Shown here: one piece after another, positions 26,757-35,907 of the stretch
Layout of the letters: each line of letters opens with the position of its first letter
Position numbering within the stretch: the stretch's first letter is position 1
Source of the DNA: Escherichia coli O157:H7
Lineage (GTDB): Bacteria; Pseudomonadota; Gammaproteobacteria; Enterobacterales; Enterobacteriaceae
Assembly: GCF_013167455.1 (NCBI RefSeq)
Contig: NZ_CP038328.1
Length of the DNA stretch: 64,000 bases
Direction: 5' to 3' (one strand)
Notes under the pieces: generated by a model
Database searches by the model: none
Seen by the model: only the letters and a program-made list of their open reading frames with translations
Told to the model about the DNA's origin: nothing
Program-made: the position numbers and the translations under genes

Positions 26757-29027
26757 TCAATTCTCTTGCCCCAGCGCCTGCGCCAACTGCGCACGGGTAA
26801 AGGGTTTGCGCAACAGCGCCACGTCTGGCAGCGCGGGGTTATGGCTGGGGCGTAAATCCTGACCGCTGATGAGTAGCAGCGTCAGGTGCGGGTAAAGTTT
26901 GCGGGCCGCATTGACCACTTCTGCGCCGCTCATGCCGCCGGGGAGCATTAAATCGCTGATAAAAATATCGATTTCTGCTGATGCCGCCAGCAGATCCAGC
27001 GCCTGTTCGCCGCTGCTTGCTTCCAGCGTCAAATAGCCCAGCAGGTGCAACTGTTCGCAGATGGTCTGGCGCACCGCGGCTTCATCTTCCAGCACTAACA
27101 CCAGTTTATCGCCGCTGACAGAAGCCTGTTCTACTGCCGCTGGCGATAGGTTTTTCGCCGCCGTCAGCGCGCGGGGAAGCTGTAATCTGACCGTTGTCCC
27201 CTGCCCCGGCGCGCTTTCAATTTCAACGCGCCCACCGGACTGGCGCACAAAACCATAGACCATCGACAAACCCAGCCCGCTGCCGCTGCCCGTCTGTTTG
27301 GTGGTAAAGAATGGCTCAAATACCTGGCTTTTCACCGCCTGCGACATACCGCAGCCATGATCGATGACCTCCAGTGCCACCATGTCCTGACGCTGCCCAC
27401 TGCTGCGAGTAACGCGCTGATTCCAGGTACGAATTTTGATGATTCCCGTCTGCCCTTCCATCGCGTCACGGGCGTTCATCACCAGGTTGATGATGGCATT
27501 TTCCAGTTGGCTGATGTCAATCCACGCGGGCCACGCCGGAGACTGCGCTTCAATCTCCAGCGCCAGCGTTGCCGGTAAGGAGTGGCGCATTAATTCGCTT
27601 AACTCTTCCAGCAATGTTTTCAGTTCAACGGCTTGCGGATGTAAGGACTGCTTGCGGGAAAACGCCAGCAGTCGTTGTGTCAGTAGCGCCCCACGTTCGG
27701 CAGCTTGCAGCGCCCGCTGTATTCGCGGCGCGTCTGGCGAGTCCGGATTCACCAGCTCCAGGCTGCCAATAATCACCGCCAGCAGATTATTAAAATCATG
27801 GGCCAGCCCGCCCGTCAGTTGCCCGACAGCTTTCAGTTTCTGGCTGTGTAATAGCGCCTCTTCCAACCCCTGCCGCTCAGTTTGGGCAATCTCCATCTGC
27901 GTGGTCTTCTCTTTTAGCAGCCGTGAGGTTCGTTCGAGTGACGCGGTATTGCGGGCAAAAACGTTAAAGGCGCGCGCCAGTTCACCCAACTCATCACGCC
28001 GCTGTAACGCCGGAAAAGTGACGTCCGCTTCGCCGTGCGCCAGGCGGCTCATGGCGCGGGAAATCGCCGTCAGGTTAGTGCCGAGGTTGCGATAGATATA
28101 CCAGCCGGCAAACGCGGTGATCACCACCGCTAACAGGGCGAAAATCATGATCACCCTCTCGCCGGAGCGCAAATCCTGGTAACTTTGCGCCACACGCTGA
28201 CCGGAGAGCGTCGCCACCTGTTCGGCGTAACGGTTGATGTCGCCATTGAGGATCGCCACCAGCGCTTTGATGTGAAACATATACCAGCTGATTGCCAGAT
28301 CGCTTTGCTCCAGAGCGGCAGAAAGCGGCGCGAGTTTACGCATTTCATCATTGAAATCATTGAAATCATTGAGTAACGTATTAACCAATGGCGTATCGCT
28401 GTGGGTCGGCAACGCAGACATTACCCCGACCAGTTGATGAATAATCGCCTGCGGCGCGGGGGTGGCAATAGCGGCAACAATCAGTCGGTTCATCTCGTTA
28501 AGCAAAATATCATCTTGCGCGTGAGTGACTTTTTGCAGATGCCGCAGATAACTTAAGTTTTGATACAGCGAACTTAACAGCGCGTTGCGCTCCAGATGCC
28601 GCCTTTGCCCGCGCTCCAGCATACCGCCGACGCTGGTTTGCAGTTCGTTGCTACGCGTGATGATTCGCGTCACCAGCCCGGCTTCCTGCTGCGCTAAAGG
28701 CGCGTTCGCCAGTTGTGCAAGCGAGCTTTTTAATGCCCGCTGTGTCTCCTGCAACCGCTCGGCTTCGCCTTTATATTCCAGCGCTCCCACCACCTGCGAC
28801 AATCGCACCGCCGCCGTTGCCACGTTTGCCGTGTCGCGCGCCAGATTCAGGCTGCCGGTCATATCATCCACCGTTTGCTGCTGCACCAGCTCCTGCATCT
28901 GGCTGGCATGACGAAAGCCCATTACCGCCACGCCGCTGACCATCAACGTCACCGCCACCACCAGCAAATTCAAAAGCAGCAATCGCCCGCGCGCGCTGGC
29001 AAAAAAGTGACGTCCGGGGTGCGCCAT
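26757..29027 (-). CDS. Hybrid sensor histidine kinase: transmembrane sensor region, HAMP, HisKA, HATPase_c and C-terminal receiver; no HPt domain
   Basis: H-box LAHDFNNLLAVIIGSLEL, G-boxes DHGCGMS and GSGLGLS, receiver KLVLVLEDEAAV...DIFISDLMLPG. Start taken at ATG 29027 (MAHPGRHFF); the upstream extension to 29204 is unlikely. Confidence 0.85.
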   Translation of the reverse strand: MAHPGRHFFASARGRLLLLNLLVVAVTLMVSGVAVMGFRHASQMQELVQQQTVDDMTGSLNLARDTANVATAAVRLSQVVGALEYKGEAERLQETQRALKSSLAQLANAPLAQQEAGLVTRIITRSNELQTSVGGMLERGQRRHLERNALLSSLYQNLSYLRHLQKVTHAQDDILLNEMNRLIVAAIATPAPQAIIHQLVGVMSALPTHSDTPLVNTLLNDFNDFNDEMRKLAPLSAALEQSDLAISWYMFHIKALVAILNGDINRYAEQVATLSGQRVAQSYQDLRSGERVIMIFALLAVVITAFAGWYIYRNLGTNLTAISRAMSRLAHGEADVTFPALQRRDELGELARAFNVFARNTASLERTSRLLKEKTTQMEIAQTERQGLEEALLHSQKLKAVGQLTGGLAHDFNNLLAVIIGSLELVNPDSPDAPRIQRALQAAERGALLTQRLLAFSRKQSLHPQAVELKTLLEELSELMRHSLPATLALEIEAQSPAWPAWIDISQLENAIINLVMNARDAMEGQTGIIKIRTWNQRVTRSSGQRQDMVALEVIDHGCGMSQAVKSQVFEPFFTTKQTGSGSGLGLSMVYGFVRQSGGRVEIESAPGQGTTVRLQLPRALTAAKNLSPAAVEQASVSGDKLVLVLEDEAAVRQTICEQLHLLGYLTLEASSGEQALDLLAASAEIDIFISDLMLPGGMSGAEVVNAARKLYPHLTLLLISGQDLRPSHNPALPDVALLRKPFTRAQLAQALGQEN

Positions 29028-29140
29028 ATCACGCTCCGTGAAGAAAAATCGCAATATGACAAATATGAACGGCTTCTGACATTTTGCATTTACTTTCCTG
29101 TGATGGAGTGCTGATATCGACAACCTCGCAGGAGTCCACC

Positions 29141-34205: not shown

Positions 34206-35203
34206 TGGAGCGTAAAGGGATTATCGCCGCAGGCAATATGTTGGTTGACCACGTCCATCAGATTATCCAGTGGCCAGAGCGCGGCTGGCTGGCGGAGATC
34301 ACCCACAGCGAACGCTCCACCGGCGGTGCGCCGCTTAACGTCCTGCTGACGCTGGCGAAAATGCGCACCGGGCTGCCGTTACAGGCGGTTGGGCTAATCG
34401 GTCAGGACAGCGACGGCGATTACATCATGGCGATGCTTGAGCAATATCACGTCAATCGTCAGCATGTGCAGCGCACTACCTTTGCCCCGACGTCGATGTC
34501 GCAGGTGATGACAGACCCAAGCGGGCAGCGGACGTTTTTCCATTCGCCGGGTGCAAACAGACTTTTGGATCTTCCGGCGTTCGATCAGCTCGATAACACC
34601 ATGAAGATTTTCCATCTCGGCTATTTACTGTTGCTCGACAGCCTGGATATGCCGGACGATGTTTACGGCACCCGTAGCGCACGCCTGCTGGCGCAAATGC
34701 GTGATACTGGCTTTGAAACCTCACTCGACCTGGTCTCCCGTAAGGGCGATCCGCGTTATCAGCCGCTGGTGCTGCCCGCGTTGCGCCATCTGGATTATCT
34801 GGTAATTAACGAACTGGAGGCCGGGGAGTTTAGCGGGCTGGAAATTCGGTTACCCAACGGCGAACCGCATATCGCGCATATTGCTGCCGCCGCGCGTGAA
34901 CTGTTAGATGCGGGCGTGCGCCAGCGGGTGGTGATCCACTACCCGGAAGGGGCGTGGGGAGAGACCCCAGAACAGGGCGGCGTGTGGATCCCTTCGCAAA
35001 AGTTAGAACAACGGGAAATTATCGGCAGCGTCGGCGCGGGCGATGCATTTTGTGCCGGATTTTTATATGGCTGCCATGAACGCTGGACGCTTACCGAGAG
35101 CATCAAACTGGCACACGCCTGCGCGCGGGCAAGCCTGTTATGCGCCAATGCCATCGACGGGGCGAAAACGCTGGAAGAGCTGCAAACAGAAATGTCGGAT
35201 TAA
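34202..35203 (+). CDS. PfkB-family carbohydrate kinase
   Basis: 333 aa with a C-terminal GAGDAF motif typical of ribokinase/PfkB kinases; start overlaps the aldolase stop. Confidence 0.82.
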   Translation: MMERKGIIAAGNMLVDHVHQIIQWPERGWLAEITHSERSTGGAPLNVLLTLAKMRTGLPLQAVGLIGQDSDGDYIMAMLEQYHVNRQHVQRTTFAPTSMSQVMTDPSGQRTFFHSPGANRLLDLPAFDQLDNTMKIFHLGYLLLLDSLDMPDDVYGTRSARLLAQMRDTGFETSLDLVSRKGDPRYQPLVLPALRHLDYLVINELEAGEFSGLEIRLPNGEPHIAHIAAAARELLDAGVRQRVVIHYPEGAWGETPEQGGVWIPSQKLEQREIIGSVGAGDAFCAGFLYGCHERWTLTESIKLAHACARASLLCANAIDGAKTLEELQTEMSD

Positions 35204-35907
35204 TGCACGTCGGCAGCGAAGACATACCCCAGACCGCGCAGAGTTTTAATCAACATCGGCTGATGCGGGTTGAGTTCGATTTTGCGTCGTAAGCGCATGA
35301 TTAATACGTCGATGGTGCGATCAAACACCTCCACGCTGTCGCTGTGGGTGAACGCCAGCAACTGCTCGCGGCTCAATACCCGACGCGCGTTTTGCGCCAG
35401 AGCCAGTAACAAGCCATATTCGCCCTGAGTTAACTCGACATGTTGCTGAAGCGGATTGTGCAACTGGCAGCGCATGGTATCGAGATACCAGCCATTGAAT
35501 GACAGCCCGGCGCTTTTCTCGTCATTAACCGCCAGCGCGCCAACCCGTCGCAACACCGCTTTCAGTCGTGCGACCACCACCCGCGGGGTGAACGGTTTGC
35601 AGATGTAATCATCCGCGCCCATTTCCAGCCCGACCACCACATCAGACTCACTGCCCATGCCGGTCAACATCACCACCGGCAATGTCGGACGCAGTTTCTG
35701 GATTTGCTGCAATACCCTCAGGCCGTTGGTATCGGGTAGCATCATATCCAGCACCACCAGCGCAATGTCAGGATCGCCCTCAATACGCAATATGGCCTCC
35801 TGTCCGGTATGGCAGACTGAAACCGTAAAGACATGTTCACTTAACACGTCCTGCAACAGTGCGCAGATAGCCGTGTCATCATCCACCACCAGCACGACGG
35901 GTTTCAT
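35200..35907 (-). CDS. OmpR-family response regulator (receiver plus winged HTH)
   Basis: Starts MKPVVLVVDDD and ends in a winged-helix DNA-binding domain (TLRGLGYVF). Convergent with the kinase gene, with overlapping stops. Confidence 0.85.
   Translation of the reverse strand: MKPVVLVVDDDTAICALLQDVLSEHVFTVSVCHTGQEAILRIEGDPDIALVVLDMMLPDTNGLRVLQQIQKLRPTLPVVMLTGMGSESDVVVGLEMGADDYICKPFTPRVVVARLKAVLRRVGALAVNDEKSAGLSFNGWYLDTMRCQLHNPLQQHVELTQGEYGLLLALAQNARRVLSREQLLAFTHSDSVEVFDRTIDVLIMRLRRKIELNPHQPMLIKTLRGLGYVFAADVH

Follow-up and report, generated by a model that had tools for sequence, protein, structure and literature searches.

The OI-167 island of Escherichia coli O157:H7: a sugar operon framed by its own two-component system at the yjdP/yjcS site

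The region at 26757-35907 of the window (the whole 64,000-nt stretch of E. coli O157:H7 DNA analysed here) is, with a probability of about 0.9, the published OI-167 island, in which the two-component system LmvK/LmvR (= RbfS/RbfR) frames the operon lmuXYZIAK. The system carries the name RbfS/RbfR in PNAS 2022 (PMC9860305) and LmvK/LmvR in mBio 2023 (PMC10128022), and a review has equated the two. A description made beforehand from the sequence, of an eight-gene sugar module with its own two-component system at the site of the K-12 allose/rpiRB locus, is accurate and agrees with RefSeq, but the island is already published and hence not new.

Identity and borders of the island

A nucleotide search finds 100% identity to 26300-36300 in E. 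coli O157:H7 chromosomes, and in EDL933 the segment 26800-35900 is matched with 100% coverage at 100.0% identity. RefSeq annotation of O157:H7 has eight genes between yjdP and yjcS, at the coordinates read from the sequence (Table 1; window position = position in the annotated locus + 22299). Gene set, gene lengths and chromosomal site all equal those of the published island, lmuX (1521 nt) and lmvR (708 nt) included. Compared with OI-167 of EDL933 (Z5692/Z5684 with Z5685-Z5691), the DNA, site, gene order and LmvR repeat are the same and no difference is seen; this sequence identity excludes genes other than Z5684-Z5692.

Table 1. Features of the island and its flanks, in window coordinates
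Feature	Position	Strand	Basis
yjdP, left flank gene, common to K-12	26359-26688	-	RefSeq; K-12 comparison
Left junction, 68-bp spacer, yjdP start to kinase stop	26689-26756		pairwise alignment
lmvK = rbfS (Z5692/EDL933_5436), hybrid histidine kinase, 756 aa	26757-29027	-	RefSeq, Pfam, NCBIfam, AF2/Foldseek; PMC9860305, PMC10128022
Divergent control region with lmuX promoter, 113 bp between start codons	29028-29140		RefSeq; published promoter mapping
LmvR binding site ATATGACAAATATGA, direct repeat ATATGA-N3-ATATGA	29054-29068	+	exact match; published DNase I footprint
Putative activator-dependent sigma-70 promoter of lmuXYZIAK	29076-29104	+	sequence reading
lmuX, ABC transporter ATPase, two nucleotide-binding domains, 506 aa	29141-30661	+	NCBIfam; published length
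lmuY, ABC transporter permease	30658-31632	+	NCBIfam RbsC-like
lmuZ, RbsB-like periplasmic sugar-binding protein	31651-32592	+	PDB matches
lmuI = Z5688, cupin D-lyxose/D-mannose isomerase	32647-33330	+	PDB, NCBIfam
lmuA, class II (FbaA/GatY-type) aldolase; ketose-bisphosphate aldolase in RefSeq	33345-34205	+	NCBIfam, PDB
lmuK, divergent PfkB-family sugar kinase	34202-35203	+	weak PfkB matches
lmvR = rbfR (Z5684/EDL933_5428), OmpR/PhoB-family response regulator; convergent with lmuK, 4-nt overlap	35200-35907	-	NCBIfam; published length
Island-specific part of right junction = lmvR upstream region	35908-36040		K-12 alignment
yjcS (alkyl sulfatase), right flank gene, common to K-12	36198-38183	+	RefSeq; K-12 comparison

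Between yjdP and yjcS, MG1655 carries alsK-alsE-alsC-alsA-alsB-alsR-rpiB, as the sequence-only reading had it. K-12 alignment also bears out its sharp flanks, with a 68-bp left junction and an AT-rich right junction containing yjcS upstream sequence. On the left, K-12 similarity falls off over the opening ~25 nt of yjdP and across the spacer; apart from a short segment at the stop codon, the spacer cannot be aligned to its K-12 counterpart between rpiB and yjdP. On the right, GC is 0.42 at 36000-36499, and K-12 homology resumes at ~36040, the remainder (~36040-36197) being the yjcS upstream region common to K-12. The right junction had been placed at 35926-36197; the region is as described, but its start was taken from the longest reading frame of the regulator, whose annotated and published start is at 35907. 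Neither annotation nor K-12 alignments reveal an integrase, tRNA or repeat at the island borders.

The two-component system, its target and its signal

In LmvK, Pfam and the structure model place a periplasmic sensor at ~40-290, followed by HAMP (312-360), HisKA (402-461), HATPase (504-619) and REC (643-752) domains; a Pfam search of the 756 aa found no HPt and no PAS domain. All NCBIfam matches of LmvK are below cut-offs, as are those of LmvR (OmpR 191, VirG 180 and TorR 163 bits). Two points are added by this analysis. The sensor domain is predicted to be all-helical with a TorS-like fold (AF2 model, pLDDT 79.6), its best compact Foldseek matches being the TorS sensor structures 3I9Y (TMt 0.72) and 3O1J (0.65). 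In E. coli, Citrobacter and Enterobacter the kinase is of a short form without a PAS domain.

The predicted double helical bundle is one of several likenesses to TorS/TorT/TorR, by which E. coli and Vibrio respond to TMAO; the others are an OmpR-family regulator on tandem direct repeats and, encoded in the lmu locus, a periplasmic binding protein of the RbsB/TorT class. One half of the LmvR repeat, ATATGAAC, is similar to the tor box CTGTTCATAT taken as its reverse complement. However, LmvK has no HPt domain, the lmu binding protein is the transporter's own, and the Tor models stay well short of their cut-offs (TorS 144 against 676, TorR 163 against 275, TorT 42 against 200 bits). VirA/VirG with ChvE, of Agrobacterium, is similar in that its kinase, too, ends in a receiver domain and is without an HPt. 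VirA phosphorylates an OmpR-type regulator directly, and in Agrobacterium the co-sensor is the binding protein of a sugar ABC transporter. The VirA-like (218 bits) and VirG models score comparatively well in NCBIfam but far below their cut-offs (647 and 344), LmvK is without the phenolic-sensing linker, and LmuZ reaches only 44 bits with the ChvE model (cut-off 460).

At the lmuX promoter the LmvR DNase I footprint covers -41 to -62, with ATATGA-N3-ATATGA inside it (PMC10128022). This repeat has a single exact match in the whole window. It lies in a strongly conserved block (29055-29093) with many invariant columns in an alignment of 27 loci ranging from Escherichia to Serratia, Yersinia and Winslowiella, and 64 of 85 loci have a single copy of a 28-nt degenerate form of the motif in the equivalent place. 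A consensus scan found no canonical promoter, as expected of an activated one. A candidate read from the sequence, not from the published figure, has CTGACA (29076-29081) as -35, a 17-nt spacer, TGTGAT (29099-29104) as -10 and a start site near 29111; it would put the repeat at -41 to -62, in agreement with the publication. Autoregulation of lmvR has been reported (PMC10128022); a motif scan of 35908-36040, upstream of lmvR, found no LmvR repeat at two or fewer mismatches.

In the mechanism that we propose, D-lyxose or D-mannose, both observed to act, and reportedly (from one group) riboflavin would lead to LmvK autophosphorylation on His410. The phosphate would pass to Asp54 of LmvR, a transfer seen in vitro; the need for an HPt intermediate in vivo is disputed. 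Phosphorylated LmvR then binds the repeat and turns on lmuXYZIAK, as has been shown experimentally. LmuXYZ would import the aldose, judging from homology and the lyxose growth defect of a lmuZYX deletion. In vitro, LmuI forms D-xylulose from D-lyxose and D-fructose from D-mannose, and LmuK phosphorylates fructose; LmuA may cleave the resulting ketose phosphate. In EHEC, LmvR also acts on the ler promoter.

The two papers are at odds on the signal, which is riboflavin in one (PMC9860305) and mannose/lyxose in the other, where both sugars induce the operon through LmvK/LmvR (PMC10128022). They also differ on the site at ler, TCTCACATAATTTATATCATT for RbfR (PMC9860305) against ATTTTA-N3-ATTAGA (PMC10128022), and on the kinase: rbfS deletion abolishes LEE induction (PMC9860305), whereas lmvK deletion is without effect on LEE transcripts (PMC10128022). 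Both report action on ler; LmvR binds its promoter and raises LEE/T3SS expression in EHEC (PMC10128022). If riboflavin from the microbiota were the primary native signal and LEE activation the main role, the sugar genes would be incidental cargo. Riboflavin does raise z5692 and z5684 transcripts 3- and 9-fold and enhances RbfS autophosphorylation in vitro, its induction of LEE depends on rbfS/rbfR, and RbfR footprints on the ler promoter (PMC9860305). Against this, the strongest LmvR target is lmuX (694-fold), and it is lyxose and mannose that induce the operon (PMC10128022). Moreover, synteny ties kinase, regulator and LmvR box to the ABC transporter-isomerase operon in ~60 species, including Kosakonia, Buttiauxella, Serratia and Yersinia pestis, and the E. 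coli kinase is one without PAS. Kosakonia, Buttiauxella and Serratia are plant- and soil-associated, and PAS is a module type that often holds flavins. We consider riboflavin unlikely as the primary signal. The conservation pattern suggests that sugar-operon control is the native, conserved job of LmvK/LmvR, and LEE control must, on the same comparison, presumably be a later co-option. Nearly all module-carrying genera, the three just named and Yersinia among them, are not known to carry LEE.

Conservation and origin

The distribution search proposed in the sequence-only reading finds the whole module and its regulator site in ~60 Enterobacterales species, usually beside phn-yjdP, with als as the alternative occupant of the site in K-12. 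A YjdP homologue adjoins the kinase in ~40 loci and is the left neighbour in most other Enterobacteriaceae. Both papers tell of an EHEC-specific, laterally acquired island, foreign to the Escherichia lineage. That account fits the clean replacement of als at one site, the presence of the module in only 410 of 5,426 complete E. coli genomes (mostly O157:H7, O55:H7 and O145) and its GC of ~0.55-0.59, E. coli genomes being at roughly 0.51. However, the neighbouring phn operon is equally GC-rich (0.58-0.64), and a separate Escherichia species (E1V33) and E. coli that are not EHEC have the module at the same site. The module is also found beside phnNOP-yjdP in eight other genera (Citrobacter, Enterobacter, Leclercia, Lelliottia, Kosakonia, Atlantibacter, Cedecea and Buttiauxella), with yjcS-ytcA-mdtN on its right in two loci, and the borders are without marks of integration as described above. 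Compared with Citrobacter youngae, nucleotide identity is 74-88% in the module and of the same order in the flanking phnOP (77%) and yjdP (79%), and protein identities drop stepwise with taxonomic distance; across genera they are 86-97% for LmuY and, from E. coli to Yersinia, 88-97% for LmuZ. Since its divergence tracks that of its flanks, the module has the look of a long-standing locus of the family that E. coli strains have retained variably. In a comparison of O157 with the urine isolate XH990, identity is 99-99.9% in the module and 95.6-98% in the flanks, which indicates exchange between E. coli lineages and is a further point for acquisition. Taken together, the data are better explained by an old locus of the family that underwent differential loss and homologous recombination among close relatives than by a foreign origin, which we consider unlikely.

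The sugar pathway

The transporter proteins are sugar-type: LmuX is AraG/XylG/RbsA-like (below equivalog cut-offs) and LmuY RbsC-like (269 bits, below cut-off) in NCBIfam, and LmuZ matches 4RWE best in PDB (558 bits, residues 26-313), followed by RbsB-type structures. In the literature consulted, neither LmvK nor LmuZ is reported to bind a ligand directly. LmuI, Z5688, is of solved structure (3KMH/3MPB, matched full length at 537 bits) and also matches NF051472 (440 bits, cut-off 350); its enzymology is cited in PMC8378251 and PMC6746899. LmuA matches NF005284 (580 bits, cut-off 406) and, in PDB, 7NCC (214 bits) and YdjI (188 bits); a ketose phosphate is its candidate substrate. The PfkB matches of LmuK are weak (PDB up to 43.5 bits; NCBIfam up to 72 bits, IolC best), with YdjH among them. 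The order aldose, ketose, ketose phosphate, aldolase cleavage, foreseen from the sequence, is also drawn by the mBio 2023 authors (PMC10128022). The L-fucose and L-rhamnose routes and the YdjH/YdjI and IolC/IolJ pairs of PfkB kinase and class II aldolase likewise lead through a ketose phosphate to DHAP and an aldehyde, but LmuI is a cupin, non-homologous to the isomerases of the former, and the kinase similarity is weak.

The earlier view that substrate and signal were not established is outdated, given the riboflavin report (PMC9860305), the induction by lyxose and mannose and the genetics. Growth on lyxose requires the regulators, transporter and isomerase and is supported by lmuXYZIAK; a contribution of the operon to growth on mannose is seen only in a manA deletion with LmvR overexpression (PMC10128022). 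Because lyxose growth needs neither lmuK nor lmuA, the role in mannose use is conditional and LmuI has a Km of ~20 mM with mannose (PMC10128022), the true physiological substrate may be neither sugar. A pathway for another rare sugar, such as D-talose via D-tagatose and tagatose phosphate to triose phosphates, with lyxose and mannose as side activities, would accommodate these points, the FbaA/GatY/KbaY family of the aldolase and the retention of lmuK and lmuA in nearly all genera. We rate it as very improbable: the literature yielded no talose or tagatose data in support of that earlier example, lyxose and mannose are the inducers, LmuK phosphorylates fructose in vitro, and LmuXYZ is ~60% identical to a Herbaspirillum mannose ABC transporter (PMC10128022). 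In addition, two species have lost the aldolase and kinase and kept the two-component system, transporter and isomerase; the core function is therefore independent of the former pair.

A rearranged or diverged allose operon, suggested by the shared site, rare-aldose catabolism, RbsB-type ABC transporter and sugar kinase, is rejected with near certainty: LmuX/Y/Z are only 40%/38%/29% identical to AlsA/C/B, the island has no AlsK, AlsE, AlsR or RpiB homologue (als having an RpiR-type repressor in place of a two-component system, and a kinase, 3-epimerase and RpiB as enzymes), and alsACEK directly adjoins a complete module in seven species as a separate, coexisting locus. The sequence-only reading had likewise held the two apart. 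The reporter, deletion and growth experiments that it proposed have largely been done already in the literature.

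Identity of the locus and its published function

The sequence-only reading had placed eight genes between yjdP and yjcS, and RefSeq annotates them exactly so (table). It also expected the allose/rpiRB locus at this site in K-12, and MG1655 indeed carries alsK-alsE-alsC-alsA-alsB-alsR-rpiB between the same flanks. Many O157:H7 chromosomes match window 26300-36300 at 100%, and EDL933 (NZ_CP120944.1) covers window 26800-35900 at 100% coverage and 100.0% identity. In alignments with K-12, the left breakpoint is the yjdP 5' end plus a 68-bp spacer, and the right one lies at about 36040, from where the sequence up to the yjcS start is common to K-12. 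The lengths of lmuX (1521 nt) and lmvR (708 nt) in the window are those tabulated in the mBio paper (PMC10128022).

Genes of the module, in window coordinates
Feature	Position	Strand	Source
hybrid sensor kinase lmvK	26757-29027	-	RefSeq annotation
ABC ATPase lmuX	29141-30661	+	RefSeq annotation
permease lmuY	30658-31632	+	RefSeq annotation
binding protein lmuZ	31651-32592	+	RefSeq annotation
D-lyxose/D-mannose isomerase lmuI	32647-33330	+	RefSeq annotation
ketose-bisphosphate aldolase lmuA	33345-34205	+	RefSeq annotation
carbohydrate kinase lmuK	34202-35203	+	RefSeq annotation
OmpR-type regulator lmvR	35200-35907	-	RefSeq annotation

Publications already cover the island and its regulators, the sequence they bind, the structure of the isomerase and the growth phenotypes (JMB 2010, PNAS 2022, mBio 2023, FEMS Microbiol Rev 2024). 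The reporter, deletion and growth experiments proposed in the sequence-only reading have largely been done; that reading accurately describes a real, well-bounded accessory locus, which is the published OI-167 system. The present analysis adds the family-wide conservation of module and operator, three states of the site in E. coli, carriers outside EHEC, a TorS-like fold predicted for the sensor and the PAS-less form of the kinase.

Liu et al. (PNAS 2022; PMC9860305) assigned z5692 and z5684 to 'OI-167' and named their products RbfS and RbfR. Autophosphorylation of RbfS was stimulated by riboflavin, phosphotransfer was obtained in vitro, and RbfR gave a footprint on the promoter of ler, the activator of the virulence locus LEE, with effects on LEE expression (PMC9860305). 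Yang et al. (mBio 2023; PMC10128022) named the same regulators LmvK and LmvR and the operon lmuKAIZYX, and described OI-167 as replacing the allose locus between yjdP and yjcS. The operon is induced by lyxose and mannose through LmvK/LmvR (PMC10128022). Normal growth on lyxose requires lmvR, lmvK, lmuI and lmuZYX, lmuK and lmuA being dispensable, and the operon supports growth on mannose only if manA is deleted and LmvR is overproduced (PMC10128022). LmvR also binds the ler promoter (PMC10128022). The two papers disagree on the signal (riboflavin versus mannose/lyxose), on the binding sites in the ler promoter, and on whether deletion of the kinase affects LEE transcription (PMC9860305; PMC10128022). 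A 2024 review (FEMS Microbiol Rev) merges RbfSR and LmvKR into one system with two signals and leaves the discrepancies unreconciled. The locus tags and lyxose find no mention in a review of virulence-related O-islands (PMC8565820).

Distribution and origin of the module

The eight module proteins were compared by tblastn with loci fetched from other genomes. The complete module, with order and orientation unchanged, is found in about 60 species, from the genera Citrobacter, Enterobacter, Lelliottia, Leclercia, Pseudescherichia, Kosakonia, Phytobacter, Atlantibacter, Franconibacter, Buttiauxella, Cedecea, Serratia and Winslowiella and including Yersinia pestis. In most Enterobacteriaceae it directly adjoins phnN-phnO-phnP-yjdP, as in O157, and yjcS-ytcA-mdtN lies to its right in two loci. 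The kinase gene has alsA-alsC-alsE-alsK as its direct neighbour in seven species (about positions 1-3900 of loci L024, L026, L032, L036, L040, L042 and L049), so als and the module can be neighbours and are not mutually exclusive. Two copies, in Leclercia adecarboxylata NCTC13032 (L067) and Enterobacter sp. EA-1 (L073), are probably decaying: their kinase frames hold 7 and 12 stop codons, respectively, and for several module proteins the match is poor or missing.

The site is polymorphic within E. coli, as counted among 5,426 complete genomes. Full als-rpiRB is present in 3,367. About 1,600, which match just the last 138 bp of rpiB, have a 105-codon rpiB remnant alone between yjcS and yjdP (O26 and O111, for example). 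In O26 strain RM10386 (L083:8821-9138), als is deleted and an RpiB/LacA/LacB-family fragment is left. The module is carried by 410 genomes, mostly O157:H7 with O55:H7 and O145, but including urine isolate XH990, pig, chicken and river isolates, and pig strain LHM10-1, whose kinase gene has a frameshift and whose phn operon is mostly missing (L084:8958-11217). The non-EHEC strains XH990 and LHM10-1 have the module at the same site. In the larger genome set the published confinement of the system to EHEC and O55:H7 breaks down. Between O157 and XH990 (L085) the module is 99-99.9% identical, against 95.6-98% for the flanks, which points to spread between E. coli lineages by homologous recombination.

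Was the module brought into E. coli from a distant source? The two experimental papers call the system a laterally acquired, EHEC-restricted virulence sensor, and the comparative results modestly affect how these are read. Nucleotide identity to Citrobacter youngae is 74-88% for the module genes, 77% for phnOP and 79% for yjdP, and protein identity drops stepwise with taxonomic distance in module and flanks alike. The locus does not have the marks of a classical mobile island. The annotation between yjdP and yjcS holds only the eight module genes, none of them a mobility gene, the alignments reveal no duplicated sequence at the borders, and the GC content of the left (phn) flank equals or exceeds that of the module, so that there is no two-sided contrast. 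Because divergence tracks the flanks, the left flank is equally GC-rich and mobility genes are absent, we consider with moderate confidence that the module would be an old locus of the family, with a presence/absence polymorphism in E. coli, rather than an exotic import. Nor is it a rearranged or diverged als operon, an alternative named in the sequence-only reading and checked here by homology: LmuX/Y/Z are just 29-40% identical to AlsA/C/B, and AlsK, AlsE, AlsR and RpiB have no counterpart in the island. The matching O157:H7 record annotates a frameshift in phnO (window 25087-25522), immediately left of the island, and lists the gene as a pseudogene; K-12 and the other E. coli loci viewed have an intact copy.

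Operator and promoter of lmuX

The repeat ATATGACAAATATGA (ATATGA-N3-ATATGA) upstream of lmuX has a single exact occurrence in the 64-kb window, at 29054-29068. LmvR protects the lmuX promoter from -41 to -62, a region containing this repeat (PMC10128022). From species-representative genomes 80 loci with relatives of the isomerase were fetched, and the kinase-lmuX intergenic regions of 27 were aligned. The block TATGACAAATATGAACGGCTTCTGACATTTTGCATTTAC (window 29055-29093) is strongly conserved in this alignment, with many invariant columns, from Escherichia to Serratia, Yersinia and Winslowiella; outside it, the spacer varies in both sequence and length. A degenerate 28-nt form of the block occurs exactly once, at the same relative position, in 64 of the 85 loci scanned, and gave no match in K-12, the empty-site O26 locus, cut-off contigs and distant non-enterobacterial loci.

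A scan of the control region for consensus sigma-70 promoters found no canonical one, which suits an activator-dependent promoter. As the scan gave none, the promoter elements were placed manually from the position of the published footprint. We infer a weak lmuX promoter with -35 CTGACA at 29076-29081, a 17-nt spacer and -10 TGTGAT at 29099-29104; a start site near 29111 would place the repeat at -41 to -62, matching the footprint. The lmvR gene is reported to be autoregulated (PMC10128022), and no second LmvR repeat with up to two mismatches is found upstream of it in 35908-36040. Compared by eye, the ler footprint of the PNAS paper and the lmuX repeat have in common only half-site-like ATG/TATG elements, and their spacing is different. 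Matches to the repeat with up to two mismatches number 8 in the window, against 2.7 expected. The best near-match elsewhere, ATATGAAAAATATAA (one mismatch; 47838-47852, minus strand), overlaps the gltP start codon and may be due to chance.

Sensing, sugar breakdown and a joint proposal

The comparisons can be drawn into one tentative proposal, to which we give about one chance in four. The module would be an old sugar regulon mostly lost by E. coli, with sensing mediated by LmuZ, direct phosphotransfer, a ketose-1-phosphate branch, and a secondary co-option for LEE control and riboflavin. Module and operator are kept at the same site family-wide, and most module-bearing genera are not known to carry LEE. 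Together with the non-EHEC carriers in E. coli, this argues that control of the sugar operon is the ancestral function; the riboflavin response and LEE control would be secondary co-options in O157:H7.

In Pfam, LmvK has HAMP, HisKA, HATPase and C-terminal receiver domains, and the scan found neither HPt nor PAS. Residues 1-345, modelled by AlphaFold on a 25-sequence alignment, are wholly helical (mean pLDDT 79.6). The best compact matches of the model among solved structures are TorS sensors (3I9Y, TMt 0.72; 3O1J, 0.65; 3O1H, 0.60), although these are weak (rmsd 3-5 A, Foldseek E-values about 3e-3 to 3e-2) and bimodular helical domains (PilJ, McpS) come close to them in score. A profile of the sensor domain gave no match to PDB sequences at E up to 10. 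Against the TorS models of NCBIfam, LmvK scores 144 and 90 bits (cut-offs 676 and 982), and unlike TorS, which has an HPt after the receiver, it ends without one. LmvR is OmpR/VirG/PhoB/TorR-like by NCBIfam; the kinase and regulator match VirA-like and VirG models comparatively well, at scores far below cut-off. TorS senses its ligand via TorT, an RbsB-class binding protein, and VirA, which has a receiver and no HPt, uses the sugar-binding protein ChvE. Given these precedents and the possible TorS-like fold, sugar sensing through LmuZ is a reasonable hypothesis. The sugar would be sensed indirectly, by docking of sugar-loaded LmuZ on a TorS-like periplasmic bundle of LmvK, much as TorT docks on TorS or ChvE on VirA. 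LmvK would then phosphorylate LmvR directly, its own receiver acting as a modulator only. VirA is a precedent for such direct transfer, as opposed to the 'unknown Hpt' that the mBio model (PMC10128022) draws between kinase and regulator, and the phosphotransfer obtained in vitro was direct (PMC9860305).

The kinase comes in two forms. Kosakonia, Atlantibacter, Buttiauxella, Cedecea, Serratia and Yersinia have a long one of about 854 aa, with PAS_7 between HAMP and HisKA; the short one of about 755 aa, in E. coli, Citrobacter and Enterobacter, is without it. PAS_7 spans residues 386-484, exactly the segment absent from the short form (long form at L025:3763-6324, minus strand; also L033, L054, L060, L062 and L069).

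LmuI scores 440 bits against NF051472, the NCBIfam model for the Gram-negative D-lyxose/D-mannose isomerase, above the curated cut-off of 350, and matches the PDB sequences 3KMH/3MPB over its full length at 537 bits. A characterisation and crystal structure of the isomerase date from 2010 (van Staalduinen et al., JMB, as cited in PMC8378251 and PMC6746899). LmuI has a Km of about 20 mM for mannose (PMC10128022). LmuA scores 580 bits against NF005284 ('ketose 1,6-bisphosphate aldolase', PF01116 type; cut-off 406) and matches class II FBP/TBP aldolases and YdjI in the PDB; as assigned by similarity, the name is a family-name annotation. LmuK is, on the same kind of evidence, a member of the PfkB superfamily only. 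It reaches no curated PfkB equivalog cut-off (ribokinase, fructokinase, 1-PFK, IolC, KdgK), its top scores being IolC at 72 bits and ribokinase at 67 (cut-off 300 for both), and its PDB-sequence matches are weak and of the PfkB type (up to 43.5 bits). Fructose kinase activity has been reported for it (PMC10128022).

The genes for this 'dispensable' pair are kept almost everywhere among the fetched loci, being lost in two species. The module may have a native substrate that is neither lyxose nor mannose, and a branch that cleaves a ketose-1-phosphate. For the talose/tagatose route suggested in the sequence-only reading, the analysis turned up evidence in neither direction. The conserved LmuK/LmuA pair would serve the ketose-1-phosphate branch, with a native substrate of manno/lyxo configuration, resembling the fucose/rhamnose, YdjH/YdjI or IolC/IolJ routes. 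The two species without aldolase and sugar kinase, Cedecea sulfonylureivorans (L066) and Winslowiella arboricola (L068), have the sensor kinase, ABC transporter, isomerase and regulator. Conversely, transporter and two-component genes were not detected in a Pluralibacter MAG (L029) that has the isomerase, aldolase and kinase.

LmuX/Y/Z resemble the Rbs, Ara, Xyl and Als transporters, none of them reaching an NCBIfam equivalog cut-off, and LmuZ matches the PDB sequence 4RWE at 558 bits, followed by ribose-binding proteins. Among the fetched loci, tblastn identities are lower for the isomerase (65-89%), sugar kinase (68-90%), regulator (67-80%) and sensor half of the kinase (53-80%) than for LmuZ, which is unusually conserved at 88-97% amino acid identity from E. 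coli to Yersinia.
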